NCBI RefSeq assembly: GCF_028641065.1
Contig: NC_073381.1
Location: 39,804,001 to 39,868,000, forward strand
From: Leucoraja erinacea
Lineage: Eukaryota
Reading direction: 5' to 3'
DNA length: 64,000 bases
This document shows, piece by piece, positions 5,432-45,879 of this stretch (position 1 is its first letter; every line of letters starts with the position of its first letter). Both the position numbers and the translations under genes were made by a program. The notes beneath the pieces were generated by a model. That model ran no database searches, was not told the origin of the DNA, and saw only the letters and a list, made by a program, of their open reading frames with translations.

Positions 5432-13408
<7,977 letters not shown>

Positions 13409-13919
13409 AACATCGCAGTTTGGCCACAAACATTAGTTTTGTGTTTGCACAATTTAAGTAAATAATATCAAAAATACACTTCTAAAAAAATATTTTGTAT
13501 GGGTTGATTGTTGAAGTTGATATTGCTTGTATCTGCTGTGAAATTTAATACAATGAAAATTACTATGGTGTCCAAATGATCACTCTTATTTTTGGATTGT
13601 AGTTACCATCACAGGATTAGAGTCTGAAGTCACATATTGTCCAGGAATAAGGATAACATATTTCTCTCCCTACAATTTATGACAATCTGCTAATTTCATA
13701 ATTGTCATTACTGTTTATTCCAGAGTTGTTATGTGAATTAAATGTATATACCATAATAGGAATTGACCTGGCATCTTTACATCTAAAGCATAGGTTTCTG
13801 AATACCCAGCAAGTTACTTAACCATTATGTTGTTAACCATGTGGTGATCTTTTTTTAAACTTAAAAACATATTTAGAATATTTTATTTTCCAAAATAAAA
13901 CTGGTAAGTCAGTTACATA

Positions 13920-14832
13920 AATGCAGATGACACAAAGTTGGATGACAGTGAGGAGGATGCTATGAGAATGCAGGTGACTTGGACAGGTTGGGTGAATGGG
14001 CAGATGTATGGCAGATGCAGTTTAATGTGGATACATTTGAGGTTATCCACTTTGGTAGCAAAAACAGGAAGGTAGATTATTATCTAAATGGTGTCACGTT
14101 GAGAAAAGGGGAAGTACAACGGGATCTGGGGATCCTTGTTCATCAGTCAATGAAAGTAAGCATGCAGGTACATCAGGCAATGAAGAATGCGACTGGCATG
14201 TTGGCCTTTATAACAAGAGGAGTTGAGTATAGAGGTCCATCTGCAGTTGTACAGGGCCCTAGTGAGACCACACCTGGAGTGCATTTTTGGAGTGCATTGT
14301 GTGCATTTTTTATCTCCAAATTTGAGGAAGGACATTCTTGCCATTGCGGGAGTGCAGCGTCGGTTCATAAGGTTAATTCCCGGGATGGCGAGACTATCAT
14401 ATGCTGAGAGAATGGAGCGGCTGGGCTTGTATAATCTGGAATGTAGAAGGATGAGAGGGTATCTTATTGAAACATAAGATTATTAAGGGTTTGGACGCGC
14501 TAGAGGCAGGAAACATGTTCCCGATGTTGGGAGAGTCCAGAACCAGGGGCCACAGTTTAAGAATAAGCCATTTAGAACAGAGATGAAGAAATACTTTTTT
14601 TTCCACAGAGAGTTGTGAGTCTGTGGAATTCTATGCCTCAGAGGGCAGTGGAGGCCGGTTCTCTGGAAACTTTTGAGAGCTAGATAGGGCTCTTGAAGAT
14701 AGCGGAGTCAGGGGATGGGGGGAGAAGACAAGAATGGGGTGCTGATTGTGGATGATCAGCCATGATCACATTGAATGGCGGTGATGGCTTGAAGGGCCGT
14801 GTGGCCTACTCCTGCACCTGTTGTCTAGTGTC
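13920..14832 (+). mobile_element. CR1 LINE fragment
   Basis: ADDTKL...DRLGEWADVWQMQFNVD RT C-terminus with frameshifts, and a CR1 tail. Confidence 0.88.
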
Positions 14833-15139
14833 TTACCAGTAAATCATCAGAAATCTCAACTTAACAAACCATTTGGTCGTTTGGGAACATGCAAGTCAGT
14901 AACTGACTTTAGTTGAATCCCACTTACCTGCTTCTATGTGCACAACCTTGAAGATTATGACCCTTCAACTATGCAGCCAAGTACATTAGACTTAATAGAC
15001 ATTTCTACATCCAGGAGTTCCAGTTCCAAACTACTGGTTGAGCAATTGGTTATTGGTTTCTTCTTTATTGTCACAGTTTTCCTCACTGTCACCCCATTAC
15101 ACGATGGATGTGGAGGCTTTGAAGGTGGTACAGTAGCGG

Positions 15140-16030
15140 TTCACCTACCTGGATTAGAGGGCATTCGCTAGAAGGAGAGGATGGCCAAATCAGGATTTTT
15201 TTTTCTTTGGCATAAGAGTGGCTGAGGGGAGACCTGATGGAAATATATAAAATTATGAGAAGCATAGATAGGGTAGACAGTCCGAACCTTTTTGCCAGAG
15301 TGCAATTGTCAGACTAAAGTGAAAAGGGGAAGGTTTAACAGAGAAATATGGTACAAGTGTTTTTCCTTTACAGCGAGCGATGGATGTCTGGAATTCGTTG
15401 ACAGAGGTGATGGCTGAGGCAGATACAATAGTGGCATTTGTGAGGCTTTTGGATAGGCATATGGAAAAGCAGGGAGTGGAGAAATATGGATCATATGTAG
15501 ACAGAGGAGATTAATTTAACTCGGCATTATGTTCTGCAAGAGCATTGTGGGCCGAAGGGCCTGGCCCTGTGCTGTACTGTTTTATGTATTATCTTTGTGA
15601 TCCTGCTTCTCAACCTCCAAATCTCTATATTTACTCCGTCGGACTTCGGTCCTTTGACAACCCATGTTGTTGATACCAATGTATTTGACGACCTCTGGCT
15701 GCTCAGCGAGTATAGACGTTGGGAGGTCATGTTGCAGTTTTATAAGACATAAGTGAGGCCACATTTAGGGTAATGTATTCAGTTTTGGGCACCGTGTTGT
15801 AGGAAAGGTGTTGCCAAGCTGGAAAGGGTGCAGAGAAGTTTTAAGAGGATGTTGCCAGGACTCAAGGGCCTGAGCTATAGGGAGGCTAGGACTCTATTCC
15901 TTGGAGCATTGGGGGATGAGGGGTGATGTACAGAATCGTGAGAGGAATAGATGCGGTAAACACACAATCTCTTGCCAGAGTCGCGGAATCGAGAACCAGA
16001 GGACATAGGTTTAAGGTGAGGGGAAGAGGA
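15140..16030 (+). mobile_element. Old CR1 fragments
   Basis: Degenerate LRGDL-E-YKIMR-IDRVD and LERVQR-F-RMLPGL segments. Confidence 0.65.
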
Positions 16031-16049
16031 GGACGGACCCGAGGGGTGA

Positions 16050-16700
16050 CTTTTTAAAAAAAACACATCTTCGCACTTTGCGTCTGTAGATGTTTGCATT
16101 GTCCCGTTTACCTGCTCCGAGAAAGGTACATTCGCGAAAGGCTTGAATTACTGATTTGAAGCAGAATGAATACAAATCCTTCTTTAAAACAGCTGGAATG
16201 CAGATATGCCGGTCTAAATGTCGACAATCCTCAATTATGTCAAAATGAAAGTTAGCGCAGTCGTTTAGTGAAAGCGGATGTTGGATACTTTTGTTTGAAA
16301 GACTCGCTTTAAGGTCACCTGGAGTTGCAATGTGAACGGGCTGAGCGTGGATTGGTGTACGGGAGTTTAGCGCGGTGTTGTTGGAAACGAGTGCAGGTCG
16401 TTCAGGTGGAGAGTGGGTGCCTGGGGAAAAGGAGCCGATCCTGCGATCACAGTGAGTTGTAGCAGCGACTTGGACGTTGTCAGCCAACGAGCTTTGGCGG
16501 CTCTTCTGACAACTCAATTTTACAGACACCCACTGCATTCGATATTTAAGAGCCCACTTATAAAGGGACAAAACCTTCCGTCTGTTTGCATATAGTCGTC
16601 CATTTCGGGTAGATATCCACGTTACCGTGTTATCTCTGAACAGAGTAAGGGGTGCACTGTTTAACCCGGCTTCATGGGCTAAAGAGCTGTTTGCCGAGAG
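16050..16700 (+). promoter_or_regulatory. CpG-rich unique segment, candidate promoter / first exon
   Basis: CpG-enriched non-repeat DNA; E-boxes CACCTG 16316-16321 and CAGGTG 16403-16408; reverse CCAAT 16351-16355; donor-like A|GTGAGT at 16452. Confidence 0.4.
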
Positions 16701-18204
16701 ACAAGTAGGTGGTTTGTAGAGATGTGTGGAAAGGAATCAGAGGCATTAGCAATGAGTCTTCTGGCGAGCAAGACGTTGGATGTCATTGGCCTAGAAAGAT
16801 GCAGAAAAGATTTACGAGGAGCAAACTACAAAGAACTGGAATAACTCAGCGGGCCAGGCAGCATCTGTGGAGGGAATGGACAGGCGACGTTTGGGTTCCT
16901 TCTTCAGACAAGAAAAGTCTCTGTCGTCAGACTAAGTTGCTAGGGTTAGAAGGACTGAGTGAAACAGAGAAGTTGGGCAAGCTAGGATTATTCTTTGGAG
17001 CGTCGGAGACAGATGGGAGATCTTATAGAGGTGTATATAACCACGAGAGGGATGGATTGGATAAATGCATGCAGTCTCCCCCCCCCCCCCACAGTACGGG
17101 AATCAAGAACTAGAGGGCATGGGTTTAAGGCGAGAGGGGAAAGATTTAACAGGAGTCCGTGGGGCAACCTTTTCCACACAGAGGGTGTGGTTGAGGCAAG
17201 TGGAATAACATAATTGAAAAAATATTTCATCATGTTTAGAGGGATATGGATGAAATGTGGGCAAATGGTGCCTAGATTAGGTGGTGTGGATGGATGGATG
17301 GGTTAAAGAGCCATATGACACAATGATTTAATGACTCTACATATTACAGTCATCACTCTTATTTTCTTCCTATTCCATTCCTGCCACATTCTGAACAGTG
17401 TTGTGTTCCTTCCCTTGCTTTCCAACCCGATTAACCCCTTTTAACATTCCCCGTCAAAGAATGGATGGCACAGGCTGAGATATTTTCTCTCTCTCAACAT
17501 CTTTCCCTTGTACGTGCTCAGCATATCTCTGAATCCAACAAACAATTCCGCTCAGAATTAAACTTTGATAAAGATGAAAATCAATTAAAAATGGGAAAAT
17601 GTTCCATCTTTCACCAGCCTCTATCTTTTGTTAATAATGTTTTGGGAATCAACTTTTCCCAATTGCTATCAATTGCGGGTGAGGAGGCAAATTACCACGT
17701 TTTTCCTGCTGCCACCAATGTAGACGCATTGTGAGTACAGAGGCGAATAAAAAGGGGCTTCAGTGGATACCGAGTAGACAGAACACAAGGTGGAAAAATG
17801 TGAGGCCAACCTCATTGTTGAATTAGTGAAAAGCAGAGTATTTGTTCAACAGTGAGAGATTGAGTAGTGTTGATATTCAGTGGGGCCCCGAGAACACTTA
17901 CACATACAAAAAATAGAATGCTAGAAAAAATTAAAACGACCCAAAAGGGCCACATAGTCCACTCTTGCTCCTATATCCTGTGTTTATAATCACTGAAGAT
18001 CATTTCAGGCAACAACATAGGTGGATGATTAACCATTTTTTAATTTTTTTTTAAATACATAAAAGTCAGGACATGGGGGAAAAATATGAATTATGGAATC
18101 CTGTCAATTTGATGAATTTTGTTGTGTCTCATAAACAGCACAATGACTTCCTATATTTTCAGTCTTGACCACAAATTACTCTGTTCAAAATACTTCCTTA
18201 AAAT

Positions 18205-18960
18205 CATTATAATAATAATACATTTTATTTATGGGCGCCTTTCAAGAGTCTCAAGGACACCTTACAAAAAATTAGCAGGTAGAGGAAAAACATGCAAGGG
18301 GAATGAAATAAATAGTAGAGACATGACCAGCACACAAAGTAAATACAGAATTCAATACAAAACACAGTACGAGGCAATTAATGCACAGATGAAAAGGGAC
18401 GGCACGTGGGGCTAAGGATAGGCAGAGGTGAAGAGATGGGTCTTGAGGTGGGACTGGAAGATGGTGAGGGACACGGAATTGCGGATCAGTTGGGGGAGGG
18501 AGTTCCAGAGCCTGGGAGCTGCCCTGGAGAAGGCTCTGTCCCCAAAACTGCGGAGGTTGGACTTGTGGATAGAGAGGCGACCAGCTGATGTGGATCTGAG
18601 GGACCGTGAGGGTTGGTAGGGGGAGAGGAGGTCAGTGAGATATGGGGGGGGGGGGCAGATGGTGGAGGGCTTTGTAGGTGAGGATCAGGATTTTGTAGGT
18701 GATCCGGTGGGAGATGGGAAGCCAGTGAAGTTGTTTGAGGACTGGAGTGATGTGATGCCAGGATTTGGTGTGGGTGATGAGTCGGGCGGCTGCGTTCTGG
18801 ACCAGTTGAAGTCGGTTGATGTAGGTGGAGCTGATACCAAGGAGAAGTGAGTTGCAATAGTCCAGTCGGGAGGAGATGAAGGCATGGATGAGTCTTTCAG
18901 CAGCGGGCGGTATGAGAGAGGGTCTGAGTTTGGCGATGTTGCGGAGATGAAAGAAGGATA
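18205..18960 (-). mobile_element. L2-type LINE 3' fragment
   Basis: FFHLRNIAKLR...IHAFISSRLDYCNSLL...LQLVQNAAARL...LHWLPISHRITYKIL; (ATT)n tail. Confidence 0.88.
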
Positions 18961-19756
18961 TTATGACCAATATAGACGGTTAACCAAAATTTAAGTATTA
19001 AAATTTAATTGCACCATTATTTAAATTTTCACTGGACTGACACAGAATATCATCAAAACACTCGGCTGGGGGCTAGATTTCAAATCATACAGTAATAACC
19101 TTCACTCCAATTCACATGGTGGGTATATGGAATGAACTGCCAGGAGATACTTCAGGCAGGTACAAAAACAATATTTAAAAGACACTTGGACAGATATGTG
19201 AATAGGAACGGTTTTCAGGGATATGGACCAAATGCTGGCAAATGGGATGAACTTAGATGGGGCATCTGTGTCAGCATGAATGATTTGGGCTGAAGGGCCT
19301 GTTGGAAGTGCTATATGACTACAGTAACTATGGAGCGTTATACTATGTGAGATTTCTAACATTGTATCACACGACTGATTTCAGTAAAACATACCCACCC
19401 TCTCCCAAACAGATTGATTTCTATAAGCACTAACACCATTTTACATATTGAAAGAATAGAAATTAGGTGGAGTAGGCCATTTATCAATATGATCATGGCG
19501 AACCTGGCTGCTGCTACCATTTGTCTTCCTACTCGCCTTTACTCAGCTTTGGTACAGCTGGGTATCCAGTACAATTTGATGCCAATGCTGGTGAAAGGGC
19601 ACAAAAAAGGGTTTTGTGCCCTTGCTGTATTTCTTCTGAATCTGAGTCTACGGCAGTTTCTATGATTTTGGCTGCACTTGGTCTTCAAGGGAGCAGAGGT
19701 CACACAAACCAGACATGCAGTTGGAGTGAGCTGTCAGTGTAGCTAAAATGGAATGC

Positions 19757-20065
19757 ACATAGAAAATAGGTGTAGGAGTAGGTCATTCGCCACTTCAAGC
19801 CAGCACCGCCATTCAATCTGATCATGCCTGATCATCCACAATCAGCACCCTGTACCGACCATCTCCCCATATCCCTCGATTCCGCTAGACCAAAGAGCTC
19901 TATCCAACTCTTTTGAATGCATCCAGTGAATTGGCCTCCACTGCCTTCCGAGGCAGAGCATTCCACAAATTCACAACACTGGGTGAAAAAGTTTTTCATC
20001 ATCTCAGTTCTAAATAGCCTACCCCTTATTCTTAAACTGTGCCCCCAGGTTCTGGACTCCCCCAA
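19757..20065 (-). mobile_element. CR1 3' fragment
   Basis: GESRTWGHSLRIRGRLFRTEM and CR1 tail. Confidence 0.85.
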
Positions 20066-20066
20066 A

Positions 20067-20271
20067 AAAAGTTTACATTCTTCCACAGGGCTTGTATTCA
20101 CTGGAATTTAGAAGGACGAGGGGATCTTATAGAAACATAAAATTATTGAGGGATTGGACACATTAGATGTAGGAAACATGTCCAATCCCCAATCATTTTA
20201 TGTTTATATAAGATCCCCTCATCCTTCTAAATTCCAGTGAATACAAGCCCTGTGGAAGAAAGTCAACTTTT
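20067..20271. repeat. Long inverted repeat (CR1-derived foldback); arms 20067-20160 and 20179-20271
   Basis: Right arm is the reverse complement of the left over ~93 bp with few mismatches; 18-nt spacer. Confidence 0.9.
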
Positions 20272-20356
20272 ATTTACTTTGCATCCATCTGAAAAAAGTT
20301 TATTTACAGCATAAACTTGCAGTACTTTAGCTTCCTGTGCTAACTCTCATAGGCTG

Positions 20357-23300
20357 ATGAGCAACATGGAGGATTGGTGTCGACAGCATTACCTGAACGA
20401 TAACACAATTAATCAGCTAAAACACCAGGTGCTTTTCACACGTGAAGGCATAAATAGCCTGACCAGGAATGACATTGAAAACATGAACATAAGCTTGGGC
20501 CAGAAAACAGCATTAAGACATCTATTATGCTCAGAAAATGCCCAAGCTAGGATGAAGCAAAGCAAGTAAGTTCTGTGTTATGAAGGGTTTAAGTAAATAC
20601 TGTGTGATTGGTGCTTCATTTGTAATGAAAGATGAATATCTACATCCAAACAGAGACAAAAAGAAACTGCAGATGCTGGAATGAGCAAAGAGCTGGAGGA
20701 ACTTAGTGGTTTTGGCAGCGTATGAGGGGGGAATGAGTAGTGGCATTTCAGACTCTGAAGTCAGTCTGAAGATGGGTCCCAACTTGAAACATCATCTGGC
20801 CATTCCCTCCCCAGATGCCGCTTGGCTTACTGAGTTCCTACAGCACTATGTGCTTTGTTCAAATCTGCATATTACTTGAGACTTAAATTAAGTATAAATT
20901 AAGTCTAGTTGAAAGATGCGAATGACCAGCTGAGGGGGTCCTGGTATGTAGGAAATAAACCATCCGAAGCAAACCAAAACGGTAATGCATGCAGAAGAAT
21001 CCAAATCATAGCCATTTCAGATTGCAGATACTTTAATCCTTAATGGGACATCAGGGTAAAGTCTTAAGTTACTATCATCCAGATTCAATTCTTAAGTATT
21101 GAACAAATGAGGTGATTCCAGGAATAATTTAAATAGAAATAAATTCAGAAAACATTAAAAGCGAAATTCCATATATGTAAATAGTTAAGCCCAAGCAATA
21201 ATACAATTTCTCTGGCTTGATAGAAACAGAAAAACTTCAAGAAATTAACCAAATATTTCTAAAATATGAAGTGCCTTTTAAAATTACATGAAAATAGCAG
21301 CAAAGTTTGTCTTCAAACCTTTGAATGAGAGATTTGCGAGAGATATATCGATATTAGTTTGATTGCTTATCAAACTATATCGATTTCTATCTCTCGCAAA
21401 TCTCTGATCAAATCAATGTTGAGAATCAATTGATCAAGACATCCAAAAGTTAGGAAATACATTTTAATAGTGCAAAAAATAAACAAAATTGAGAATTAAC
21501 AAATACTGCCATAATTACAGAATTACAAAGTATTTATGCAAAAATATGCTTCATTGAATTGTGCTCAATTTTACTATGATAAAGATTTTAATGTTATTAA
21601 AAATTAAAAAAATTCCATGATTTTAAATGTGCAAAGATAAATTTAAAAATCAATCGACAAGCCTTATCAACAACTGTATCTGATGCATTCACTGCAGGCA
21701 ATAGGAAAGTTAAGATGTTCTATCAACTGTCACTGAGGAACCAGATCTTTTCATTATAAATTTAAACAGAGAAAATAAAAATTTATTTAGTTGTGTTCTT
21801 CCATTTACCGAACAGTACAGGAACCATTCCTTCGACCCACAATGCCCGTGCTGAACATGATCTTAGGTTAGATGGACACAGATTGCTGGAGTAACTTAGC
21901 AGGTCAGGCAGCAACTCAGGAGAAAAAGGATAGGTGACATTTCGGGTCGGATGGGCCTGACCGCTGAGTTACTCTAGCACTGCGTGTCTATCTTGGATAT
22001 AGACCATCATCTGTTGTTTTTGCATGATGCCAGGTAAATTAATCTTCTCTGCCTGCATGTTATCCATATCCCTTCATTCCCTGAATTTCCATATGCTTAT
22101 TGTATCAATTTACTCCACCACCCATGGCAGCACCTTCCAGGCACCCACTACACTCAAGAGTAAAACAAACTTGCACTGCACATCTCCATTATAGCTTATC
22201 CCTCTCATCTTAAAGTTATGTCTTTGCCATTTCCACCCTGGAAAAAAAGGTTCCTTTTTTTTAATTATTTTTTTTTTATTATTATTTTTAAAAACTGGTT
22301 CCCCCTCAGCCTCTGTGGCTCCAGAGAAAAGAATCCATCTTTGGAATACTAATTCTGATGTTGGACTGAAGAATGTTGTGAATCATTGCAATTTTCTCAG
22401 TCTAAATTTCACAAAAAAAAAATTAAACAAAGAATGTTTCTGTAAAGCTTTATTTGAACATCCAATAATTACAAAGTCAAATTTCACACATTTAATGCAT
22501 CTTAATATCTTTATGCTGAAGTTAATAACTCCAGAGTAAGAAATTGCACACCATCCGTTTTATTTATATTGGAATAATATGTCACTAACAATTTTTAATA
22601 CTTCAGGATTCCACAAACAGATTATATCGATTATGGGTGGATACACAACATTACTGAACTCTTCATTTTGTAAGTGCTCTCAAATTATTAGTTATTTAGT
22701 TTATTTTTGGATCTATGAAAAGTGAAATGCAACACTAAAAAAATAAAAAACTTTTCCCATGTTCGTGATAAGAAATGAAAACTTTACCTTATTTTTCTTT
22801 TGTGGCAATCCTCTCTTTACTTCAATAATCGCATGATGTTTGTGCTTCGGAGGAAGTTATATACACATTTTAAAAATTGGAGCCAAAAAAGTTTTTGTAT
22901 ACAATGACTAACTGCAATCTCTCATTACATAGAATTGTGTTGCGTTAATAATGAAGCACATGTTAAAGAATTTATAGAAACAACTGCAGTGACCGGATTC
23001 TCTTCCATGATCAAAATAGGTGTGACGGTTGTGGAATAGACCCAATTATAGGCACCAGATTTGTGTGCAACCAATGTGACAATTTTGACTACTGCTCTAC
23101 CTGCTTTCACACAAGAAATCATAAAGACCATTCATTTGCCAGAATTGATTATCCAGGTATGTTAGAGTTCTGTCCAGATACCCAATGTCTAACATGTGAT
23201 GCAAAGTTGCACTAAAAAGGAACTCCAACACATAATTCATTTAAAATCCTGGAAACATGCATAATATTGATCGACAAGACATTTATTTTTGTAACCATTG

Positions 23301-24695
23301 CTGACCCGATCTTGCTCAAGCTGGCGTTTCAGAACATCAATCTCTCAACTACTCACGGAATCTAATCCAACCTATTGTAGATGGAACCCAGAATGTCAGA
23401 TTAAAGCACCTTGTCAGCTCTAACCGAATGGCTTCAGCCCCTGCCAAAGGCTGGCATGGTTGTGCCTGGACAGCAGTTCACTTGCTCAGGCTGGTTCACT
23501 GCGGGGTGCGGAGGGTCATATTTGGTGTAGGAGAATAGACCTCACTGTAAATCTAGAGCAGAATGTACGATTTAGTTGGATGCAGATAAACAAGGTTGGT
23601 GGATGGAAAGAACTGCAGATGCTGGTTTAAACCCAAGCCACAAAAAGCTGGAGTAACTCAGCAGGACAGGCAGCATTTCTGGAGAGAAGGAATGGGTGAC
23701 GTTTCGGGTCGAGTCAAGTTGACCCGAAATGTCACCCATTCCTTCTCTCCAGAGGTGCTGTCTGTCCTGCTGAGTAACTCTAGCTTTGAGCCTAACAAGG
23801 TTGCTGGTCCAGGATGAAATGTTTGAGTCAAAGCTAAACGATCCACAAACACAGCTGCCATGATTTGCTTTTATTTAGCTTCCCCCCCCCCCCAAAAAAA
23901 AAGTACACTTTGCATTTATGTTAGCCAAACTAGTTTGAAGTGAAAGACTTCAAGTGAAATCGGCAAGCCGATTTTACCACCACAAAAATAAATGTCAGGT
24001 ACACAGGCTTGACCACAAGCAAATTCAGTCTCCAACATGGCCCCTTAAGAACGACTCCCAAGCTATTCAAATTGAGAAACCCGCTCCTCACCACCACCAG
24101 CATTTAATCCATGGCAAACGTTGCAGACTGGGAGAGGAGCAATGGGCAAAAAGAACATACTATTGGAACATTGCATTCTAAAAGAGATTAATCTTTTAAA
24201 TTGCGCATGTTCATTAATTATACGTGTTCAAATATGGGTCTTTTGCAAATGGCTAATTTTAAATTCCTGCCCCTTTTACAGGAAAACTGTCAGCACAAAG
24301 AGGTGGTAGGTTTGGATGATTTTATCCTTGTCATTAGACCAACCTTTAAAATCGCCCAGTTTCCCCCAAAACATTTGACTTTAGACCAAACAAAAAAAAA
24401 ACTAAGATAATCTGATGTCCCGGCAATACAATACCAAATTCTATCAAAGAATACTGCTCGTGGGCTGAACTGCAAAAACAATTAATCACTGTGTACATAA
24501 AACATGCAACAATAGAATGGTTGATAATTGGACTCAAATCTTATAGCTTTGCTCTTTGATCAGAGCTTTAGTGATTATTTTTTCCCTCTCTCTAGGGTCA
24601 CAATTAATTTATGTTGGAAGATCAGGCAACAAAATACCTCAACAGAAAGATTTTTTACAGTATTGAAAGATAACCGTCAAGATTTGATGTATTGA
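20357..24695 (+). CDS. Putative small SAM-domain-like protein; exons 20353/20357-20565, 22607-22669, 24596-24695 (~123 aa from ATG 20357)
   Basis: Exon A encodes EDWCRQHYLNDNTINQLKHQVLFTREGINSLTRNDIENMNISLGQKTALRHLL (SAM-like W...L...LT..D...M.I.LGQK..L pattern), flanked by catag|G and AA|GTAAGT; exon B has branch point CACTAAC, cttcag|G and TT|GTAAGT; exon C has a polypyrimidine tract/ctag|G, is open to TGA and is followed by AATAAA 24715-24720; all junctions phase 2. Confidence 0.62.
21328..21405. repeat. 78-nt near-perfect hairpin
   Basis: AGAGATTTGCGAGAGATA (21328-21345) pairs perfectly with 21388-21405; the inner stem ATCGATAT(T)AGTTTGAT closes a 5-nt loop. Confidence 0.85.
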
Positions 24696-26791
24696 ATTAA
24701 AGACAAAACTAATCAATAAAATAGAAGCTTCTGGGACAATACCCATGTTTAAATCAATAAGGAAACAATGTGAAATAAATGGAAAATGTTGGATGAAGAG
24801 CTTTTCATGGAGTAAAATGGATGAATTAAAATAATGTTTTTAAAACTGCTGCTTGTTTTCATCTTGCATTCATAAACAGGCACCAAAAGAAAAAGACACT
24901 GCAAATAGCACCTTAATTGAAGATTAAAAATTGGGCGAGTGTATTTGACTATCAAGGGCGTCATGAGTTATGGGGAGAAGGCAAGAGAATGGGGTTGAGG
25001 GGGAAAGAAATCAACCATGATTGAATGGTAGAGTAGACTTGATGGGCTAAATGGTGTCATTCTGCTCCTAAAACTCATGAACAAATTTATGGGAGTATAG
25101 ATGAAGATTAATCACTTTTTCCTTTCTCCCAACCAAAATTGCAGCCGAATCAATACAAATGGCATACTATAGGGAGGCACAGGAAAATACGGTGGTTTTT
25201 TTGGGGTGTAAGAGGAAAAAAAAAGTTCTTCGGAAGAAAAAACCAAGTCAAAATTAGCCACTTGCCAGTCTATTTTAAACTAAAAAAAATGATTGGAGAA
25301 CATTCACTTAGATATCACAAGGTTTTGCAGATTGCTTAAAATCAATATGCAGGTTATGTGATGGCAGACTCTATGCATCTGTGACCTGAATCTGCATTGT
25401 CTAGCATGGTAGCAGAAATATGAACATTTTCCTCCCACCACAGGAGGGGAAATTCATATTTGTTTAAAAAACACACTGGATCACTTGCATTTGTCACAGA
25501 TGATAATTTTGGCCATGGCAAGATACACTAGGTTGTACCAGCACTACTTTTACTAAGGTCCTGTAGGGTAGGAGATACGACAGGGTGGTAAAAGTTTATT
25601 TAAAAAATAAATAAATAAAAGGCACTAAAAAGAAAAAACAGCTTCATAGTAAAGATACTGAAAGCCGATCTAACCAAAGCAGAGTTTCACCTCCAATATT
25701 GCCACATGAACCTTTACACTAAAATAATACAATTGTTCCATGGGACTTGTACAATTTCCAATGTCAGTAAAACCAATTAAGGGTTATTTGCCTGTAATCT
25801 TGAAAGATCAACACCAATCCTATAATCTGTTCAATTGAAAGTTGAACTCCTTTAACGAGTTGAAGGTTAACAAACACAATTAAGATCCTGGCTGGTAGAT
25901 AGATGTGGTAAAGACCATGAAGCTAGTATTTTCCACTGTCAGAGGTGCAGAATTTGGATTGCAGTTTTGCAGATATATCAATTCATGACTTGACCACAAG
26001 ATTTGTCAAGTGCAGTCTTGCAGATCAAATCTGCTCAAAGCAGGTAGGGATACACATTCACTACAGAAATCTTGCCCAGCTATTTAAAAACCTAAAAATA
26101 GTAAGTTGCTTGCAATGTCATAATATTTAGTTTAACCACTTTTGCCAACCCATATTAGTCAATAATTCATAGGACAGACGGTTCAAAAGTACCTGGAATT
26201 AAGTGGGGCATGCAAAGTGGAGATTTGAGATCCACATAAAATATGGTATTAGAGCTACCATGGACTGTATCTACCAGAGAATCTGAAGGAGAGGATGAGA
26301 CAGTTAAAGGGAAGCCAGTTTAATCAATATACTTTTATTTGCCTAATGATACACATGCACTCTTACAAGAATTATTGCAACAATCAAGAAAATTGCCAAA
26401 CCGCTTCCTAGCACCCATTGCCAATACGATCGTGTTAGTCCACCTGGAAATCAAGAGAAGATTGAATACTTTCATACTTCACATGCCAGTTCCCATGCAT
26501 CTGCCCAACCCACTGAAATGTTATATTAGCAATGGATCTGAAAAAAGTACATTCAAATTCATCCAATTTCAGACTTGTGACTTGCTTTATGGGGTTGTGT
26601 GCAATTGCAGCCACTCTTTAGTGCTCAGTTTGCAAGATCACTTATTTGGAAAGTTCCCTCTCCACCCCAAATCAGACTCGGATGGCTTTCCCTCCACCAA
26701 AAAGAAATGCAATAGTAACAAGTCAATTTCAATGCCGGAAAGCACAAACCTTCAGAAAACAATATTGTATGTCATTGATAACTAGAAAAAG

Positions 26792-29700
26792 CTACTCCTC
26801 CAGTAAAAAGTCTGAAGTACATGGGCAGTCTAGCAAAGCATGCCTTCGCAGGAATGTCAGCAAATATATGGAATGGTCATAAAGTGTGTGTTGTAGTGTC
26901 AGTCCCAAGCTTTGCAGAATCAAAACTGCCAATTTAAAATCACTGCCACTTGTAAAGTGCCCATGAAATTCAGCAATATGCCATTCCAAAAAGAAAGTCA
27001 ACTCGCCTTCAGTTTTTGCATGTTCCAACCTGCCAGCAAAAAGCCAAACTTCTCCAAGTGACACATATTCTTTGTGCATGTTCAGGTAGGTACTCTGGCC
27101 TGGAAAAAACACGTTAAAATCTTCACAGAAAATTCAAATTTAAGTAAGCAATATGTACATTAGGTCTCATCAATTACCTTTTTCTACTGTGCATTGTCCA
27201 TCGCAAGAAAAATTTGTATCTGGATTATTAATGCAGATCACAACACTGCAGTGGCCATATATCTACAAATACAATGACAATATCCATTTGGTGAATCAAA
27301 CTACATGTGGTTTCTACATGAAAAGTCAGCAATGTGGACAGATGAAGCAAAACAGTGTTTACTATTAAATTCAAATGGGTGAAGTTTTGCAGTCTCCAGA
27401 CTTACTTTTTCAGGCAACACCGTTTCTGGTGGGAGAGATAGTTTCTGTATTTTTACTTCAAATCTTTTCAGCTGGTGAAAGTTCTGGGTGGTGTTGGATG
27501 CAGGATGGAATGTAGTGACAAATATTTCTTCATTGCTTGCACAACTGTTCAGAAAACAAATTTAGTTTAGACAGATTAGGCATGCAGGTGCAGCAGGCAG
27601 TAAAGAAAGCGAATGGTATGTTAGCTTTCATTGCGAAAAGATTTGAGTATTGGAGCAGGGAGGTTCTACTGCAGTTGTACAGGGTCTTGGTGAGACCACA
27701 CCTGGAGTATTGCGTACAGTTTTGGTCTCCAAATCTGAGTAAGGACATTATTGCCATAGAGGGAGTGCAGAGAAGGTTCACCAGACTGATTCCTGGGATG
27801 TCAGGACTGTCTTATGAAGAAAGACTGGATAGACTTGGTTTATACTCTCTAGAATTTAGGAGATTGCGAGGGGATCTTATAGAAACTTACAAAATTCTTA
27901 AGGGGTTGGACAGGCTAGATGCAGGAAGATTGTTCCCGATGTTGGGGAAGTCCAGGACAAGGGGTCACAGCAAGGATAAGGGGGAAATCCTTTAAAACCG
28001 AGATGAGAAGAACTTTTTTCACACAGAGAGTGGTGAATCTCTGGAACTCTCTGCCACAGAGGGTAGTTGAGGCCAGTTCATTGGCTATATTTAAGAGGGA
28101 GTTAAATGTGGCCCTTGTGGCTAAGGGGATCAGGGGGTATGGAGAGAAGGCAGGTACAGGATACCGAGTTGGATGATCAGCCATGATCATATTGAATGGC
28201 GGTGCAGGCTCGAAGGGCCTACTCCTGCACCCAATTTCTATGTTTCTATGAGGACCAGGGACAGTAACAAGGGATGCACACTTTTTCACTCCTTACCCAG
28301 CCCTGATAACATGCCATTGCGGTAGGCTGTTGCGATCAGGAGTTGTAGTCATCCAGCAATGATCTAACACCAGGTCAGTTTGACGATTGTTATTGTTCAG
28401 AAGCTCAACTTCAAAATAAAGGGTTTGTGTCCAATTCAAAGCCACTGGATATTCTTCATCCTTGTAAAAATCAAAGTAATCAGCAGCTATGGAAACAGAA
28501 GGATTGTGTTTAAAATGGGCAAGTGTGGGGAGTAGCAAACTCATCTTGCTTTTGCAAATAAACATTTTGCTTACTTTTGTAAATCTTAGAGTACAGTTCT
28601 GAAGTATGCCTTGGTCTCTTGACTCCTGGAAGAGGAAATAAACAATTTTTCCACAACAGGTTGACAAGCCAGCCTTCTGTATTCACAACAGACTGGTATA
28701 CAAAGTGTCATAGATGTCTTTTCCAGAACAGGTAATTGAAGGGAGCATAAAGCAATATTTTAACAGACACCAAAATACATTCCCTTGTGGCAAGCTAAAT
28801 ATATCAAAGCATTCAATTTTAATGTACAATATAATTGACCAGAGAGCACTTTTCCCTGGATCTCAGTATATATGTGACAACAATAAGCCATGACCATGGT
28901 GGTAGTGTGTCTATTGTAGAGTTATTTTCAAAGTACTTCACTAATTCAAGCCATACTTACCCCTCACTATTTGCAAATTGGCAGGATGCCGGGCATCTTT
29001 CTGGTATCTCTTCACAACCCCAACAGACAGAGTATTGTTCACTTCAAATCGACAGGTAACTGTTAAACTACGGTTAGGGGAAAGAAAGTGTTACTACTCG
29101 CATCTACATTTAAGTATCGATTTTGTCTAATTCAACCTACCGATAATCAGGGTCTCTAGTTATCACTGGGAAGTTCACAGGAATAACTTCTCTTGGGTAT
29201 GAAACTTCATTCTTATAGATCAAGTAATTCCCACGAATCTAAGAATATTACATAACCACAATTAAAAATTGGATTATTGAATTTTGGAAGCCTTAATGAG
29301 ACACGTACAAGGGAGCCTCCCATCCACTCAACTGTTCTGGTGGTGCCACAACTATTAATGTTGAACTTAAAGAGTGCTTTATGATCGTTAAATTCTTTTG
29401 GTTGGCATTTTCCATCATTTAGAACCATTTTACCAGGATCCAGGTCAGGTAGTGTATCCACAACTGCCGTGATCACCATTGTTCCATTTGGAAAGCACAC
29501 TAACAAGGAAATTAAATAGTTAGATACTTGCAAGATTTGAAAAACACACACCTTCATTTTATTTTTTTGAAAAACCCCCCAAAAATAAATAAATCGTGCC
29601 TGCAAGATCTCCAGGAAGAAAATTGCAGGCTACAGAAAAGTGAATCTGAATCTTCATTGTATTTTTGTCCTTCAATGTCAGGTTGAGTCTTGCTGCAATT

Positions 29701-32700
29701 CTTTGAAGACTCAGTTCCTGAGGAGGAGCCAGAGAACAAGTTACTCAGAAAATTGGGAAATAAAAGTGTGGAGGCACAAAATAAAAATTACATACCTCAT
29801 AAATCACACTCCTTCCAGAAAGTGGAACACCAATTAAAATATGGGTTGCATTATCCACAAGCAAGTATCCATAATTTTGTGAAGATTGTTGTGTTATCAG
29901 AAGGTCATCAATGAATGGAAGCCAATAGTCGACTAAATTTCCTTGAGTTACTAGTAGATACAAGTTCTTATCATCACAGTACCCAGTAGCCTTGGGCAAT
30001 ACTGGAGGAAAGAGAAAATAATTAAACTACAGATGAACTCTGCTTCAACATGAAGGAAGGAAGTGTTTGATTACTCACCAATATCTGGTATTTCATGTAC
30101 TATTTTTACATGCTGATGAAAAGGTTCATTTTCTGGAATTATTTTGAATATATAGATGACATCAAATATGTAGAGGCGAATGTTAGTATGTAGGTGCTGG
30201 AAGACAAAAATGATCCACTTGGCATGTCAAAGCAAGTTGTTTATTTGTTGTACAAAAATGACCAAACATTTTCCTTTTGATTATCCTTTATCATACACCT
30301 TCCAAGCAAAAGTTATGAACAGTCAATCCAAGGTTCATATCAACCAAGTTATTTACATTTTAAACATTATTAAATGCCCAAAAGGAGAGAATGAAATAGA
30401 TATTTTGGTGATGCAGTTTCTTTTAATTCCAAGAGTGGGAAGCTTATTCAGAATTGTAATATCCTTTTCAGCATCGTGTGGCAAAATGAGAAAAAGTCTG
30501 GCAATCCCATCATGGAAACACTGAAGCAGTCAGATCTGATGACAACCTTGCCTTTATGAGCAAGAGAGTTTCAATACCAGGGCAGATTTAATAACAAAGT
30601 TAGGTACCTCTGTGGCACCATCAACATGTTGGATGGTGTGCAATGTTTTACCCCATTGACACAAAAGTAACCCAAATCAAAATTTGAATTAGTGCTAGTG
30701 CAAATTTACTCTCAAATTAATTGCAATTTTGTTTAATAGCTCAAAGTAGTGAGACAAGCTTCACTGCGTTTACTTAGTTCAAGATTACTCGATCAGCAAA
30801 TGATGAATTCAACCAATCGTTATGTAGCCTTGCAATAGTAGGACCTCAAAGATTATGGGATAACCATCCAGTCAAGCATTCAATTCAGAATTTGAAAGTT
30901 AGATTGGTTACTTTACCTCTTGCTCTATATTTTCATTCTCAAATGGAACTTCCACTACGTAGACTTTGGTGTTGTTAGGCAGTGGCATTTCATAGATTGT
31001 GAACCCAGTCTTGTTTGCCTCATCCACTGGGATTATCTGTGTACCTACAGTTAAAGCTACAAGCTCTACATCAGGAAGGAAGTTTCCTACAGAAACATTG
31101 AATGTGCGCTTTTCTGGAATGGTATCTGCAAGGGGAAAAAAATAATAAAAAAAATTATTCATTGCATTATTCCACATAAGTAGTCCTACTCACAATACTT
31201 ACTATTGGTCACAATTGGTGGCCGAGGCATGAAGGGAGAGGCAACTGGATGGATGATTGTGTATTTGGTCAGCTCCCATTGATGTTCTGCAAGCAGTTCT
31301 ATCGAGTACACAATGCCGTACTGTCCTTGAACTACATGGCTCTAAAACACAAGTTAATGATGGATTAAGTAGCAGTCACAACTGCACTTTACGAATTTAA
31401 AACCTCACTGATAAGTGTACAAACCTTATAATTTCCACCTTTTGCTCCAATAGGAATAGTGACAACAATGTTTGTGTCATTGTATGCCAGTGGATAATTC
31501 AGCTCTGCCATTTTATCTGGGGTTAGAGGAACACCATTAACTCCCAAAACAATAGAGTTATCATAGAACTGTTCTTCATGAGAGGAAAGTGTTGGGATGA
31601 CTCTTGGTATTCTCCAGATGATCTCATCTTCAGTGTAAGTAGTGCCACCTGTTAAAGAGCAAGAATGCCTTTTAGCTTTTATACTTCACCTATAGGTGAT
31701 GACTAACATGTCCAACACTCAACCAGATAAGCAATATTGGTGGACAAAACCACAATTCAAATTGATCAAGATTGCATGCAACACGTCTTGGCATCAGTTC
31801 ACCATATTGATACACAAAGGCCATCTACACATGCTGGTTTAGATTACATGTAGAAGAAAATCATTAAGGGTTGTGGCACTTTAACTGTATACATGAGGGG
31901 TGGGGTAAGGAAAAAGGGGGAAACTTGATAACCAAAAAAATATTCACCTGTAGGACAGGCCACTGTTGTGTCAATCAAGAGGATCATCCATTCTTGTTTG
32001 TAGAAAGTAGTTGATCGAATGCTTGAAATGGGGCACATTTTCTACCTAGCAATGTATTATAGAGAGTTATTGCAGAAATAGATTTGTCAAATTACTTTTT
32101 GTAAAGCAATTTTGCACTCACCAGTAACAGTTCAACTTCAGTTGCATTGTAGGGAGCTCTTAACAATAGACGTGAAACTGTAGTGTCAATTCTGTAATGA
32201 TTACTCAATGTTTCATTGACAGTCATTGTCTCCATTCCTTCAGGAAGATGAAATACAACTTGCCAAATGGCATTTTCAGCTTCTTGAGCCTAAATAGTGG
32301 AGAATAAAGTTAATGCAAGCAGTTTGTGCTCAACAGAGGGGAGAAATGAAAACAGTAAGCAACTTACAGATGGAACTGCTGCCATCCAATCTTCATTGTG
32401 GTCATTCTCAATTCCTGGTATTACTCTTTGTACTGAAACCTAACCAAGAAAAAAGCAAAAATGTTGCAATTATACCGCAAAACTCGTAATGTGTACAACT
32501 AAATTTCCCATCAATTGTTGAGCCTCCCAGAGGCATCATGGGACCCCAACTCAATGAAACACCAGTGATGGGAGGCACATTTTAGCACTGTATAGGCAGT
32601 GCCCATCTTTTGACCTATATTCAGAGATGTGATTGAAAATGAACATTAAATTAGAATTATTAGTGTGAATAAGTGACTTAGATCCCCTTTAAAGAGAATC

Positions 32701-34631
32701 TTGTTCTACAGGTCAATATCCAAGTACAATATCACAAATTAATTGATTAACTCAAGGACAAGCAAGATCAGAAAATTAGAAAGCAGAGAAGGCAATTTTA
32801 GTTTTAGTGCAATATCTTTAATTGACAAGATGGCAGCTCTGAACAACAGTACATAAATCTAAGTGTCACTTTCATACAAAGCATACCTCCATGTAGTTTT
32901 GCTCACACAAGATTTCTCGTGCTTGCCATGGAAAATAGGAACAGCTCATTGTATGCAAGTAAGTTGATGCTCGCTCCATGGGACCAAACTGAATTTGTAG
33001 ATTCAGGCTAAATAAATCATCACCCTGGAAATAAGAGCAAAAAATAAATAAACATCCAAGTCAGAGCATTCTGGCTGCAAATAATGATGCCAAGTATTAG
33101 ATTTCTGCTGTTACTGAAAATTATTTCAAAATGAAGGGGGGGGGGGGGGGGGGGGGGGGGAGGGGAGGGGGGGGAAAGAAGAAGAAGAAGAATGAATAGG
33201 AAAATCATGAGACAACTTGTGTCTGTGTGGAACAAATTGCAGAAGTGGTTGGGTGCAGGTACTATAACGGCATTTAAGAGACGTTTGGACAGATACATGG
33301 TTGGGAAAAAAAACCCAGAGGAATATGGGCCAAATGTAGCACAGACAAGTTGTGTCAAAAAGACTTGTTTTTGTTCTGTACGATTATAATTCAATCTAAG
33401 AGCATTTAATAACAGTTTAACTTATATACTATTGTAATTTATTGACCCCAGTTGCCAACAAGCTGAGAGTACAATTTCAGGAATGTAAAAACTACTTTGG
33501 TAAAATGAAGTAACAAGCATGAAAAATGGCAGAATGCAGAACACATTCTGAAATGCTGTAAATCTTGTAATGACAGTAAATGCTGAATGTCTACAAGTAA
33601 CGAGACTTGCATCTAAGCTTTGCAGTCCAATGCCGAAAGCCACTATTTTACAAGACTATAGCCCAGATATTGCAGCCAGTAAGACGCCCTACAAGTTGTT
33701 TAAGAAGGAACTGCAGATGCTGGAAAATCGAAGGTAGACAAAAATGCTGGAGAAACTCAGCAGGTGAGGCAGCATCTATGGAGCGTAGACAAAAATGAAG
33801 GGTCTTGACCCGAATCGTCGCCTATTTCCTTCGCTCCATAGATGCTGCCTCACCTGCTGAGTTTCTCCAGCATTGTCTACCTACAATATCTCGTGGTCAG
33901 TTGTACAGAAGTTTCCGAATTTAATAAAAGTAATTCTGGTCCGTGAGCGCTTAAATTTCATTATGTTTCCTAATCAGGACGACCTCGCCCCTGGCCTTCC
34001 GCAACAGTGTATGCACTCACCTCGTTAACTACCATACAAGCCATAACAGATGCACGAACTAGCACGTTACCAAACGGATCCTGCGATACAGTGTAGCCGC
34101 ATTCAGTTGCGAACGACGGGGTGAGCAAGTAGACTTCGCCTGCTGAACCTAGTAATCGGAAAATAAAATGAGAACGGGACAGAGCAGAAACAAAAACAAA
34201 TGTGGACATTAGTTGTAGGTTTACCGGTGACTCCGAGACTCCACGGCTTGTCTTGCAGAAAGGAAGCATTCAGACGAATCCAAAAGAGGCGTCCATAACA
34301 GTGACCCTGTAACAGACCTACCAGCAAAACAAGAACAAAAAATAATAAGAGCGAGAAGAGAGAAACATGGAACTGCATATGCTGGTTTATAAAAAAAGGT
34401 GCAGGAGTAAATGGGTCGTGGCCCACACGTTATAAATCAGTACAAGAAAACTTGCCTTCAGGGGGCGAGGGTTGCATCCATACATCATTAATAAACAACG
34501 CCCAAAGCAACGTCAACCTAGAAAACACATCAAACGCTTGTTTGCATTGGGGAAGTTGCCAAGTAAGGAGAAAAAGTTGCACATTATCCAGGATAATGCA
34601 GCCTGTCTACCAACCTCAGCCAAGCAACCAT
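26792..34631 (-). CDS. ZPAX: Zona pellucida AX-family egg-envelope protein, copy a (possibly impaired); exons 34615-34631, 34456-34517, 34225-34317, 34021-34148, 32887-33024, 32368-32439, 32122-32289, 31948-32045 (or -32041), 31425-31648, 31203-31341, 30917-31125, 30079-30196, 29796-30001, 29600-29717, 29333-29499, 29141-29238, 28961-29067, 28575-28625, 28297-28486, 27406-27544, 27178-27262, 27007-27099, 26792-26829
   Basis: Signal peptide [20 protein letters not shown]; ZPAX N-terminal motifs ([38 protein letters not shown]); ZP module CFPNGTM...[15 protein letters not shown]...LYFEVELL...[15 protein letters not shown]; exon-by-exon homology with copy b; one +1 frameshift in exon 8 and three GC donors. 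Confidence 0.85.
27580..28250 (+). mobile_element. Young CR1 insertion in ZPAX-a intron 19
   Basis: [17 protein letters not shown]...[14 protein letters not shown] with (TTTCTATG)n tail; nearly identical to 1-463. Confidence 0.92.
33136..33174 (+). repeat. Poly-G tract
   Basis: G25 followed by AGGGGAGGGGGGGG in ZPAX-a intron 4. Confidence 0.9.
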
Positions 34632-40795: not shown

Positions 40796-41593
40796 TTATT
40801 CAAAGTCTAAACTGAATAAGATCTTCCCAAATGTTTCTCCTATTTGTGATAAATGTCTTCTTCAGGAAGCAACTATAACCCATTCCTTTGCCTCTTGTAT
40901 AAAGTTACATAATTTCTGGAGAGGAATTTTTGAAATTTTTTCTAAAACACTTAAAATAAAATTGGACCCCGACACTGAACTGATCACTCTAGGTACGTCA
41001 GAATCCTGTTCTGAGCTAACACTATTTCAAAGACGTTTCCTTAATTATGGCCTGATAATGGCGAAAGAACTAACACTTAAATTTTGGAAACGCACATCAG
41101 TCCCTACTGTTAAGATGTGGATTACAAACATGTCCAAGAGACTACATCATGAAAATATTAGACTTGTTTTGGCAGAAAAACCAGATCATTTTTCCAAGAC
41201 ATGGACACCCCTCACCGAATTCTTACAAGGATAGTTTGGCGCAACACAACTTTGGATTTACATCCAACTATGGGTTGGGTGAGGTGGGTGGGGAGGGACG
41301 AGAGGCAGGTATATCTCCACTTTTTTTTCTCTTTTTCTATTTGTTCTTTTTTTCCCTTCTTTTCTTTCTTTTACCCACTCTTTGGCTACGCTACTTTGGT
41401 AGTCTACGGGTCCTATCTTTGCACCTCTCACTTTTTCGCTCTCTTGCTCTTTCTCTTTTCTTTTCCTCTATTTTAAAGTTAAAAAGTTAAAATTGAAGCT
41501 GTACATTAACAGTATAATTTTATATGCCGTTTGTTTTACTCTTGTACATTTGCTTCTAATAAATAAAAATAAAAAAATTAAAATTAAAAAAAA
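40795..41593 (+). mobile_element. L1/Tx1-type LINE 3' end
   Basis: KLNKIFPNVSPICDKC...THSFASC CCHC knuckle, T-rich 3' UTR, AATAAA and A-rich tail. Confidence 0.82.
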
Positions 41594-41594
41594 G

Positions 41595-44500: not shown

Positions 44501-45312
44501 GCTCGGCAGCAGGATGCTGGCAATGGCACCGGAGTCCACCAGGAAACAGTGGCCGGAATGGCGATCACGTTAGTGCCGATCGCGTTCGCCTCTATGGACG
44601 ATCGGCCGAGGCATTTCCCTGAAACGAGCAAATGCTCCGGCATCTTCGGGCTTCGGGGCCATAGTGCTGATGGTAGTAGCACCAACAACGTCGGCTGTAG
44701 ACCACTGGAAACGGTGATGCTTCTTCGGCGCTGGGCTGGGCTTCTTCTTCCTCCCGATGTTGTCTCGGTTTCACCCGTGCCCATAATTTGTCGGCTCTCT
44801 CTGTGTGAGGTGCTGGGGGTCGCTGAAATCAGCTCCAGTGAGCATCAGTCGGACTTCGTCGGGCATCTGCTCCAGGAACGCCTGTTCGAAGAGCAGACAT
44901 GGTCGGTGCCCATCCATCAGGGCTAACATCTTCGCCATGATGGTAGATGGTAGATGGCTGCCGATCGTCGATGCTAGGATCTTCCCCGCCCTGTCTCTGC
45001 GACTGAGACCGAACGTGTGGAGCAGGAGCCCTTCATACTTGACGATGGTCGGCGGGTCTCTGATGTAAGGCATCGGGATCACCAATTTGGCGGTCACAAG
45101 AATGACAACTGAGTTTTCAAACGTATTTTTATTCACAAAATAACTTCTCAGTTCACAGACTCTCACATACGTTTGGCCACATTGGTGGTCAGCACTGACC
45201 TGCCACACAAAAGCAAAACCACGTGAAAACAAGCAGCCCCTCCCGAGTCACGTAAACCGCGGCTTCCGAACGCCGGGTTTGATACCTGCGTGCGCCAGCA
45301 GATGCCGCTACA
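41595..45312 (-). mobile_element. Gypsy LTR retrotransposon, degenerate: 5' LTR 45086-45312, tRNA-Trp PBS 45071-45084, gag-pro-RT-RH-IN; 3' LTR absent
   Basis: LTR starts TGTAGCGG, ends CCGCCAAA and contains AATAAA; PBS TGGTGATCCCGATG; gag (HTFGLSRRDRA, PCLLFEQAFLEQMP, CYYH..YG..ARRC), protease FLVDSGA, RT (SPWASPLHMVPK, RMPFGLKNAAQAFQR), RNase H (TVDASD, YSAFDRELLA), integrase (HVDLVGPL, TTDRGAQF, YHPESNGLVERFH); many frameshifts. Confidence 0.93.
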
Positions 45313-45314
45313 TT

Positions 45315-45575: not shown

Positions 45576-45879
45576 GGCCGAGGCATTGCCCTCAGTCATT
45601 AACTTTTGCGTCATTTAGGGCATCAATCCAGCGGATGGAAACAAAGTCCATCGCAGGGATTTAATTGAAGCACTGAAGATTGGTGCAGCCAAATGAATGC
45701 CCTATGGAGAAGACCCCACCCCATTGTCCTTCGTTGTTGGATGAGGGGCTGAGTCCGGTGGGAGCATCCCTCAAACAAGTGAAGTGATATGACCCCTGGG
45801 GACAAACGGAAATAGCAAGGGTGTTTTGTTTAAAGATAGGTGCGAGCACCACTGAGTATGACACTGCACACATTCACTA

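Follow-up and report, generated by a model that had tools for sequence, protein, structure and literature searches.

Within the 64,000-nt window of the little skate (Leucoraja erinacea) genome that was analysed, a spliced gene of four coding exons lies on the same strand as TTC32, 7 kb downstream of it, and encodes a product of 156–159 aa depending on the start codon (Table 1). TTC32 in its canonical 135-aa form has exons of its own (5432-5550, 8544-8710 and 13287-13409), and the ZP-domain neighbour is transcribed from the other strand, its 3' end facing that of the gene, so that the two have no common promoter. The introns are canonical GT-AG and contain repeats, and the region was found to be single-copy in protein and DNA searches. 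ATG 20357, the NCBI start, gives 159 aa; ATG 20366, the Met common to the orthologs, has a better Kozak context and gives 156 aa. As the 5' border of coding exon 1 is a splice acceptor (20353), an upstream exon must exist, and the CpG-rich stretch between the last exon of TTC32 and the SAM–ZZ exons, judged by its sequence, is a candidate for the gene's own promoter and non-coding first exon. The likely poly(A) signal is followed by a second AATAAA at 24774. A search of Rfam over 4,000-27,000 returned no match, and none of five nearby open reading frames exceeded a Pfam cut-off.

Table 1. Features of the SAM–ZZ gene and its surroundings, in window coordinates.
Feature	Position	Strand	Remarks
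TTC32 exon 1, coding part	5432..5550	+	phase 2 donor
CpG-rich single-copy stretch	16050..16700	+	CpG o/e about 1.0; GTGAGT donor after 16451
Coding exon 1	20353..20565	+	213 nt; phase 2-2; predicted SAM-fold domain
Coding exon 2	22607..22669	+	63 nt; phase 2-2; conserved linker
Coding exon 3	23020..23156	+	137 nt; entered in phase 2, left in phase 1; ZZ zinc finger
Last coding exon	24596..24666	+	entered in phase 1; stop TGA 24664-24666
Alternative stop TGA	24693..24695	+	reached only with the ZZ exon skipped
AATAAA, likely poly(A) signal	24715..24720	+	from sequence only

Splicing was assessed with a transcript contig spanning 20361-20565, 22607-22669 and 23020-23141, which joins the first three coding exons directly and was present in one of four contig runs among the matches listed. 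This contig ends at 23141, so that junction 23156-24596 lies beyond its reach and was taken from the four-exon model, which corresponds letter for letter to NCBI entry XP_055491381.1 (little skate, 159 aa). Two bases of the contig depart from the genomic sequence (one change is silent, the other Arg-to-Ser) at a depth under 5, and these may be errors. Junctions 16451-20353, 22669-24596 and 23156-24596 are absent among the contig matches listed, which proves nothing. Raw reads of four runs, taken from 1–25% of each, indicated near-nil expression, with mean depths of 0 to 1.5 in the exon-1 and ZZ bins, and no exon junction was found among the joints listed. These reads were swamped by SINE-like repeats.

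A sequence-only reading of the locus had proposed an unannotated gene of three exons encoding a 123-aa, SAM-only protein. Exons 20353-20565 and 22607-22669, the acceptor at 24596, ATG 20357, TGA 24693-24695 and the AATAAA at 24715 were all correctly placed, the three-exon join does translate to the claimed 123-aa sequence, and junction 20565-22607 is present in the contig. However, that contig also joins 22669 to 23020 rather than to 24596, and the proposal had missed the 137-nt exon 23020-23156, whose translation matches the ZZ zinc finger of Pfam (PF00569, E 8e-12). Inclusion of this exon shifts the frame of the last one, whence the stop at 24664-24666 and the length of 159 aa; the last 32 residues of the 123-aa product, and with them most of its hydrophobic stretch (LFILVTINLCW), derive from the exon-skipped frame. 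The product is a SAM fold plus a ZZ, not SAM-only, and the four-exon protein was already in NCBI, filed as a TTC32 isoform.

Orthologs of 153–161 aa with 62–99% identity occur in 11 shark and ray species, as expected of the lineage-restricted spliced gene that had been inferred. Their frames are intact, the ZZ exon is included in all 11 aligned proteins, and 60 alignment columns are invariant; over the 10 full-length rows, the invariant columns amount to 32/67 in the SAM part, 10/21 in exon 2, whose product has a predicted helix at residues 79-88, and 33/45 in the ZZ. The databases hide the gene under three wrong names: NCBI labels it TTC32 in five of the 11 species and uses other names in six, among them 'ref(2)P-like' in two rays, a label derived from p62/Ref(2)P. 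No relative was found outside sharks and rays in searches of annotated proteins. Among the best 150 of 2,699 phmmer matches from 1.84 billion representatives, only two covered the SAM region well, both from the same family; a SAM-region profile run against 171 proteins retrieved nothing beyond the family (best E 0.66), and an alignment search returned five family clusters among 14 matches from 824 candidates.

The ZZ is a member of PF00569, which scored 43.3 bits in the skate against a cut-off of 21.4 and was matched in 11/11 proteins, with the zinc ligands C92, C95, C107, C110, C116, C119, H125 and H128 invariant throughout. The best solved relatives of this ZZ are the HERC2 ZZ structures 6ww3 and 6ww4. 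Loss of D2709 or D2730 of HERC2 abolishes binding (PMC9001736), and the equivalent D93 and D114 are invariant in all 11 proteins, so that two of the three pocket aspartates are common to both. At the middle pocket position, HERC2 D2728, the gene has Asn112 in every member, for which reason affinity or specificity may differ. The HERC2 ZZ is also one residue longer between the two His.

The N-terminal domain encoded by exon 1 was predicted to consist of five helices (residues 3-10, 15-24, 29-33, 37-41 and 47-68, the last of 22 residues), with pLDDT values of 72-86 over residues 1-50, and Trp in helix 1 is conserved in 10/10 full-length rows. The 12 top fold matches are all SAM or SAM-type domains, the best being ASK3 (6v0m; Z 8.8, rmsd 2.1, 67 aligned residues; Z 8.2 for a second model), a moderate Z, given that values near 8 can be commonplace among helical domains. 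The same five-helix fold with a long helix 5 is seen in EphA5/SAMD5 (5zrz), CASKIN2 and SANS, and identity in the structural SAM matches is 9-22%. The SAM-like character that had been proposed for this segment was thus upheld by structure comparison but not by Pfam: the skate exon has no match above the SAM_1/SAM_2 cut-offs, SAM_2 reached a best E of 0.14 in three of 11 members, and exon 1 otherwise gave nothing but a sub-threshold LPD3 match. Neither model gave a Foldseek match with E below 0.001. ESM Atlas leads, which were not counted as evidence, stayed below 0.9 for exon 1, including three SAM clusters at 0.83-0.86, and comprised ZZ clusters only (0.75-0.76) for the full horn shark protein. 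We therefore file the domain as a predicted SAM fold outside Pfam SAM membership.

Introns and sequence point to HERC2 as the source of the second half of the gene. Among skate ZZ genes, HERC2 alone has intron positions and sequence in common with the ZZ exon and the exon that follows: 15 skate ZZ N-halves were inspected, and the acceptor precedes the first Cys codon by a single base in none but those of the gene and HERC2; both ZZ exons also end in phase 1, after Pro, so that the borders of exon 3 are those of the HERC2 ZZ exon. The two exons are identical at 89/140 nt, and the encoded ZZ is 57% identical to that of skate HERC2 and 36% to that of a skate SQSTM1-like protein. Homology continues into the last exon, whose first 12 codons correspond to the beginning of the HERC2 exon that follows the ZZ; when 8,220 AG-flanked, phase-1 open starts were scored, the gene's last exon reached 33.9, the next HERC2 exon 32.2 and the next best 19.6. 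The skate HERC2 locus, whose identity was checked, appears intact and lies on another contig. In phylogenetic trees, the gene groups with HERC2 (support 96/95; 87/78 with a larger set, with a long-branch warning), separated from it by a long stem branch, while placement next to MIB1/2 (p 0.08) or SQSTM1 (p 0.10) also survived an AU test. As intron positions and sequence are common to HERC2 alone, we conclude that, very probably, a stretch of HERC2 comprising no fewer than two adjacent exons (the ZZ exon and the beginning of the one after it) was duplicated and joined to a SAM exon from a different source before the shark–ray split, roughly 270-300 million years ago. Exon 2 was also considered as HERC2-derived and was discarded, as it had no significant match to the upstream HERC2 exons (444 and 868 of 1000 shuffles scored as high).

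Compared with HERC2 (PDB 6ww3, 6ww4 and 7rgw, covering the ZZ and the ZZ–DOC linker), the gene has introns at the same positions and in the same phases on either side of the ZZ and retains the beginning of the following exon, but has a SAM fold upstream, lacks HECT, RLD, CPH and DOC (Pfam matches of 11 members, E up to 1) and encodes about 160 aa instead of 4,834. Beyond the exon structure, splicing of the first three exons, conservation, ZZ membership and intron positions, which were established for the gene itself, the retained pocket makes it fairly likely that the ZZ would recognise the free N-termini of proteins, for example Nt-Arg or tails resembling that of histone H3. The SAM domain would tether the protein to itself or to a partner, and there is perhaps an even chance that it thereby gathers substrates, or competes for them with HERC2 and p62, without ubiquitinating them. 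Taken as a whole, the chain leading from a HERC2-derived ZZ plus SAM to a ligase-free, N-terminus-reading adaptor strikes us as about as likely as not.

Several other readings were weighed against this adaptor. The protein might be a second p62-like receptor of sharks and rays, in which head-to-tail SAM filaments display many HERC2-derived N-degron ZZ pockets and cluster their substrates into condensates, so that proteins with an N-terminal arginyl residue, or histone tails, would be sequestered without any need for ubiquitin ligation. p62 combines a polymerising domain with a ZZ, a layout that the gene would match, and p62/SQSTM1 and Drosophila Ref(2)P likewise have a small N-terminal interaction domain before the ZZ. 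Of the skate SAM domains seen, the one nearest in sequence belongs to CTBP2/RIBEYE (9wbj; hhalign probability 82, 31% over 58 columns). This domain itself falls below the Pfam cut-offs and reportedly assembles into filaments by way of a helix 5 of unique length (bioRxiv 10.64898/2026.04.28.721253); helix 5 of the gene product is predicted to span 22 residues. Yet this match is the best pick of a genome search, in which its E was 8.9, and the RIBEYE salt bridge E294/R334 becomes H11 and T51/A when mapped by residue spacing. Moreover, the gene has a SAM fold and not PB1, no UBA or PB1 matched in 11 members, leaving no evident link to ubiquitin or autophagosomes, and its ZZ exon borders differ from those of the skate SQSTM1-like gene. 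Modelling of residues 1-90 as a complex of three chains, run with the alignment not used, scored 0.01 and is evidence for neither side. We consider such a receptor unlikely. Similarly improbable is a ZZ that has lost or changed its N-terminus binding and acts as a structural or protein-contact module in a plain two-domain scaffold: the invariant Asp-to-Asn exchange at the middle pocket position and the long stem from HERC2 would fit, but both essential aspartates are retained, and a skate MIB1-like ZZ also has Asn there, MIB1/2 being named in a passage on H3-reading ZZ proteins (PMC9001736).

Alternatively, the SAM–ZZ exons could form an alternative 3' end of TTC32, with a 200-aa fusion as the working product. 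Apart from the NCBI label in five species, this is suggested by the acceptor that opens the first coding exon and by NCBI 200-aa skate models, in which TTC32 exon 1 is spliced in frame onto 20353, so that such joining is possible in skates. Against this, the fused protein is found in two skates only, other records starting at the conserved Met or being truncated, one catshark model of 230 aa has an unrelated N-terminal extension without a match in the window, and six species carry non-TTC32 names. The CpG-rich single-copy stretch intervenes, the TTC32 contigs listed splice exon 1 to exon 2, and junction 5550-20353 is absent among the contig matches listed. No TPR was found in 11 aligned proteins, TPR_1 sitting in TTC32 exon 2, and the fusion has only the ZZ in precomputed Pfam annotation. 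We regard this reading as unlikely. The 123-aa SAM-only adaptor or RNA-binding protein, with 22669 joined to 24596, is much less probable still. A ZZ-skipping thorny skate model (XP_032877393.1) means that this junction may be used in a minority of transcripts; however, its end differs from that of the little skate skipped frame although the two skates are 99% identical elsewhere, and the observed contig and all 11 aligned orthologs contain the ZZ exon. Nothing other than the fold speaks for RNA binding: the Smaug and Vts1 SAM domains rank 42 and 48 of 50 fold-match rows (Z 5.8 and 5.7), and the net charge ranges from -2 to +2 in six orthologs. Oocyte expression, thought possible in the sequence-only reading because of the neighbouring genes, likewise gains no support, as the ZP-domain gene has no promoter in common with this one. 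Finally, low expression in the runs examined and the intronic repeats would suit a transposon gag fragment, pseudogene or chance open reading frame, but a single-copy gene with GT-AG introns, intact frames in 11 species and 60 invariant columns makes this practically inconceivable; here the sequence-only reading, which had favoured a genuine spliced gene, was right.

The ligase-free adaptor thus remains our preferred reading. Both modules and the gene-birth process are of known kinds. For the pairing of a SAM fold with a ZZ in a vertebrate gene, no relative was found outside sharks and rays among annotated proteins, and searches of the open literature brought up no paper on the gene; passages of PMC6262864 contain nothing on the locus. 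The birth of the gene can be traced to HERC2 at exon resolution, as a case of exon shuffling under strong constraint across the shark–ray split. If the pocket works, the protein would amount to a HERC2 ZZ that occurs naturally without a ligase. It would then offer a compact, testable system for what the reader does on its own, and would be a candidate for a regulator of N-degron or histone-tail recognition specific to sharks and rays.

The three exons of the sequence-only reading, together with their ATG, stop codon and poly(A) signal, were located as proposed, and their joined translation reproduced the 123-residue product. A six-frame scan further revealed a cysteine-rich open frame (22967–23212) within the second intron of that model, which Pfam identified as a ZZ zinc finger (E 8e-12); an upstream acceptor and a downstream donor delimit it as exon 23020–23156. 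With a phase 2 entry and a phase 1 exit, this exon changes the reading frame of the last exon, whose stop then falls at 24664–24666. Protein and DNA searches of the skate genome showed the locus to be single-copy.

The SAM-ZZ gene is transcribed in this four-exon form. A 390-nt contig from run X1, presumed to be RNA, spans the first three coding exons in pieces 20361–20565, 22607–22669 and 23020–23141, with breaks exactly at the splice sites. The predicted junction 20565–22607 was thereby recovered, while 22669–24596 was not, the same contig splicing 22669 to 23020. The last junction (23156–24596), beyond the contig end, rests on NCBI models, orthologs and HERC2 homology. In four raw-read runs, the bins covering exon 1 and the ZZ exon had a mean depth of 0 to 1.5, indicating very low expression in those runs.

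The gene had been taken as unannotated; its four-exon translation is little skate XP_055491381.1 (P0005), "TTC32 isoform X2". Orthologs were recovered from 11 elasmobranch species, among them skates, rays and sharks, with 62–99% identity to skate and 60 invariant alignment columns. Their database names are misleading: in 5/11 the protein is called a TTC32 isoform, and the other six carry the labels "ref(2)P-like", "probable E3 ligase DDB_G0283893" or hypothetical. Non-skate records begin at the methionine equivalent to ATG 20366, with two exceptions: one record is truncated, and the catshark model P0014 (230 aa) carries an unrelated N-terminal extension of 75 residues. This extension had no match in the skate window and probably reflects either another upstream exon or an artefact of gene modelling. 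One thorny skate model (P0001) does skip the ZZ exon, but its tail differs through a frame change, which argues that this frame is not under selection. No relatives covering the SAM region were found outside elasmobranchs among the best 150 of 2,699 phmmer matches or in profile and alignment searches.

An acceptor opens the first coding exon, so there must be a 5′ exon upstream. Candidates are TTC32 exon 1, which a 200-residue model (P0003) adds in frame to the SAM-ZZ exons, and a CpG-rich stretch with a good donor after 16451; neither TTC32 exon 1 to 20353 nor 16451 to 20353 was among the contig matches listed. The CpG-rich stretch, whose 241-codon minus-strand open frame had no Pfam match, is likely a promoter. 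Because the conserved product lacks TPR, and canonical TTC32 needs none of the SAM-ZZ exons to be complete, we treated SAM-ZZ as a separate coding unit, which may share the TTC32 promoter.

Features in the window and related skate loci
Feature	Position	Strand	Remarks
Canonical TTC32, three exons, 135 aa	5432–5550, 8544–8710, 13287–13409	+	both junctions contig-supported
CpG-rich single-copy stretch	16050–16700		between TTC32 and SAM-ZZ exons
SAM-ZZ gene	20353–20565, 22607–22669, 23020–23156, 24596–24666	+
Two ZP-domain genes	about 26,000–34,300 and 54,000–61,300	-	ZP-C matches
GC-rich retroelement	about 41,000–45,600	-	reverse transcriptase match, broken frames
CTBP2/RIBEYE A domain large exon, with SAM	L004, G000:C15:15578362-15580200		closest skate sequence seen to the SAM-ZZ SAM
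HERC2 exons for CPH, ZZ and DOC	L010–L014, G000:C6:3517001-3567000		open frames

The proposed SAM identity held at the level of fold, by structural matches to SAM domains, and drew no call from the Pfam SAM profile. AlphaFold2 predicted five helices (pLDDT 72–86 over residues 1–50), again so with an alignment, and the top 12 structural matches were SAM or SAM-type domains. The best was ASK3 (Z 8.8, rmsd 2.1, 67 aligned; second model Z 8.2); a Z near 8 may be commonplace among helical domains, though here the match list was consistent and the whole domain covered. The nearest skate sequence among those compared, a weak and selected match, was the CTBP2/RIBEYE SAM, likewise missed by Pfam. That domain is reported to form filaments (bioRxiv 10.64898/2026.04.28.721253); SAM-ZZ lacks the salt-bridge pair of that domain. 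The N-terminal domain is filed as a predicted SAM fold.

The closest solved structures to the ZZ half were HERC2 ZZ (E 6e-14) and then MIB1, and its closest skate paralog was HERC2 itself (57%). Searching the skate genome for the family yielded 20 ZZ matches, 15 with the first Cys pair visible; among these, an acceptor precedes that pair by one base only in SAM-ZZ and HERC2. Both ZZ exons (137 and 140 nt, 89/140 bases identical) exit in phase 1 after the same proline, and the next HERC2 exon opens with the motif of the last SAM-ZZ exon. Against 8,220 acceptor-like starts as a null, only those two scored >32 (next best 19.6). The putative HERC2 origin is carried by this exon evidence and not by the tree, which grouped the family with HERC2 at 87/78 (19 rows, with a long-branch warning) and at 96/95 (12 rows, leaving out two partial ZZEF1-like rows, two unnamed fragments and three orthologs); an AU test did not reject other placements. 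Exon 2 matched upstream HERC2 exons no better than chance. We infer that, before the shark-ray split, a genomic HERC2 piece comprising no less than the ZZ exon and the opening of the exon after it was duplicated to a site next to TTC32, where it would have been captured by, or itself captured, a phase-2 SAM exon.

The ZP-domain genes, called "ZPAX-like" in the sequence-only reading, lie tail to tail with SAM-ZZ. Tc1-like transposase remnants were observed in a HERC2 intron (near 3,526,400–3,527,300, G000:C6). We found no paper on the SAM-ZZ gene or any SAM-ZZ domain pair; SAM, ZZ and exon shuffling are each already known. Overall, the original observation was partly confirmed and its interpretation partly supported.

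HERC2 ZZ is reported to bind free N-termini, including an Nt-Arg mimic (Kd 1.2 µM) and histone H3, through D2709, D2728 and D2730, with D2709A or D2730A abolishing binding (PMC9001736). Counted along the aligned motif, these correspond to D93, N112 and D114, invariant in 11/11 orthologs, as are all eight zinc ligands. HERC2 D2728 thus differs, being Asn112 in SAM-ZZ; ZZ pockets reportedly use residues other than aspartate in some cases, their contacts being mainly with the amino end of the backbone (bioRxiv 10.1101/2021.02.07.430097). Neither Pfam on 11 members nor the translated sequence revealed a ligase, ubiquitin-binding or transmembrane segment. With two of the three pocket aspartates and all zinc ligands kept and no ligase part, the protein, judged from sequence, would most likely read N-termini without ligase activity while being tethered through its SAM domain. 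The pocket would bind free protein N-termini, and the SAM domain would link the protein to itself or to a partner. It may act as an adaptor, or as a decoy against HERC2 and p62.
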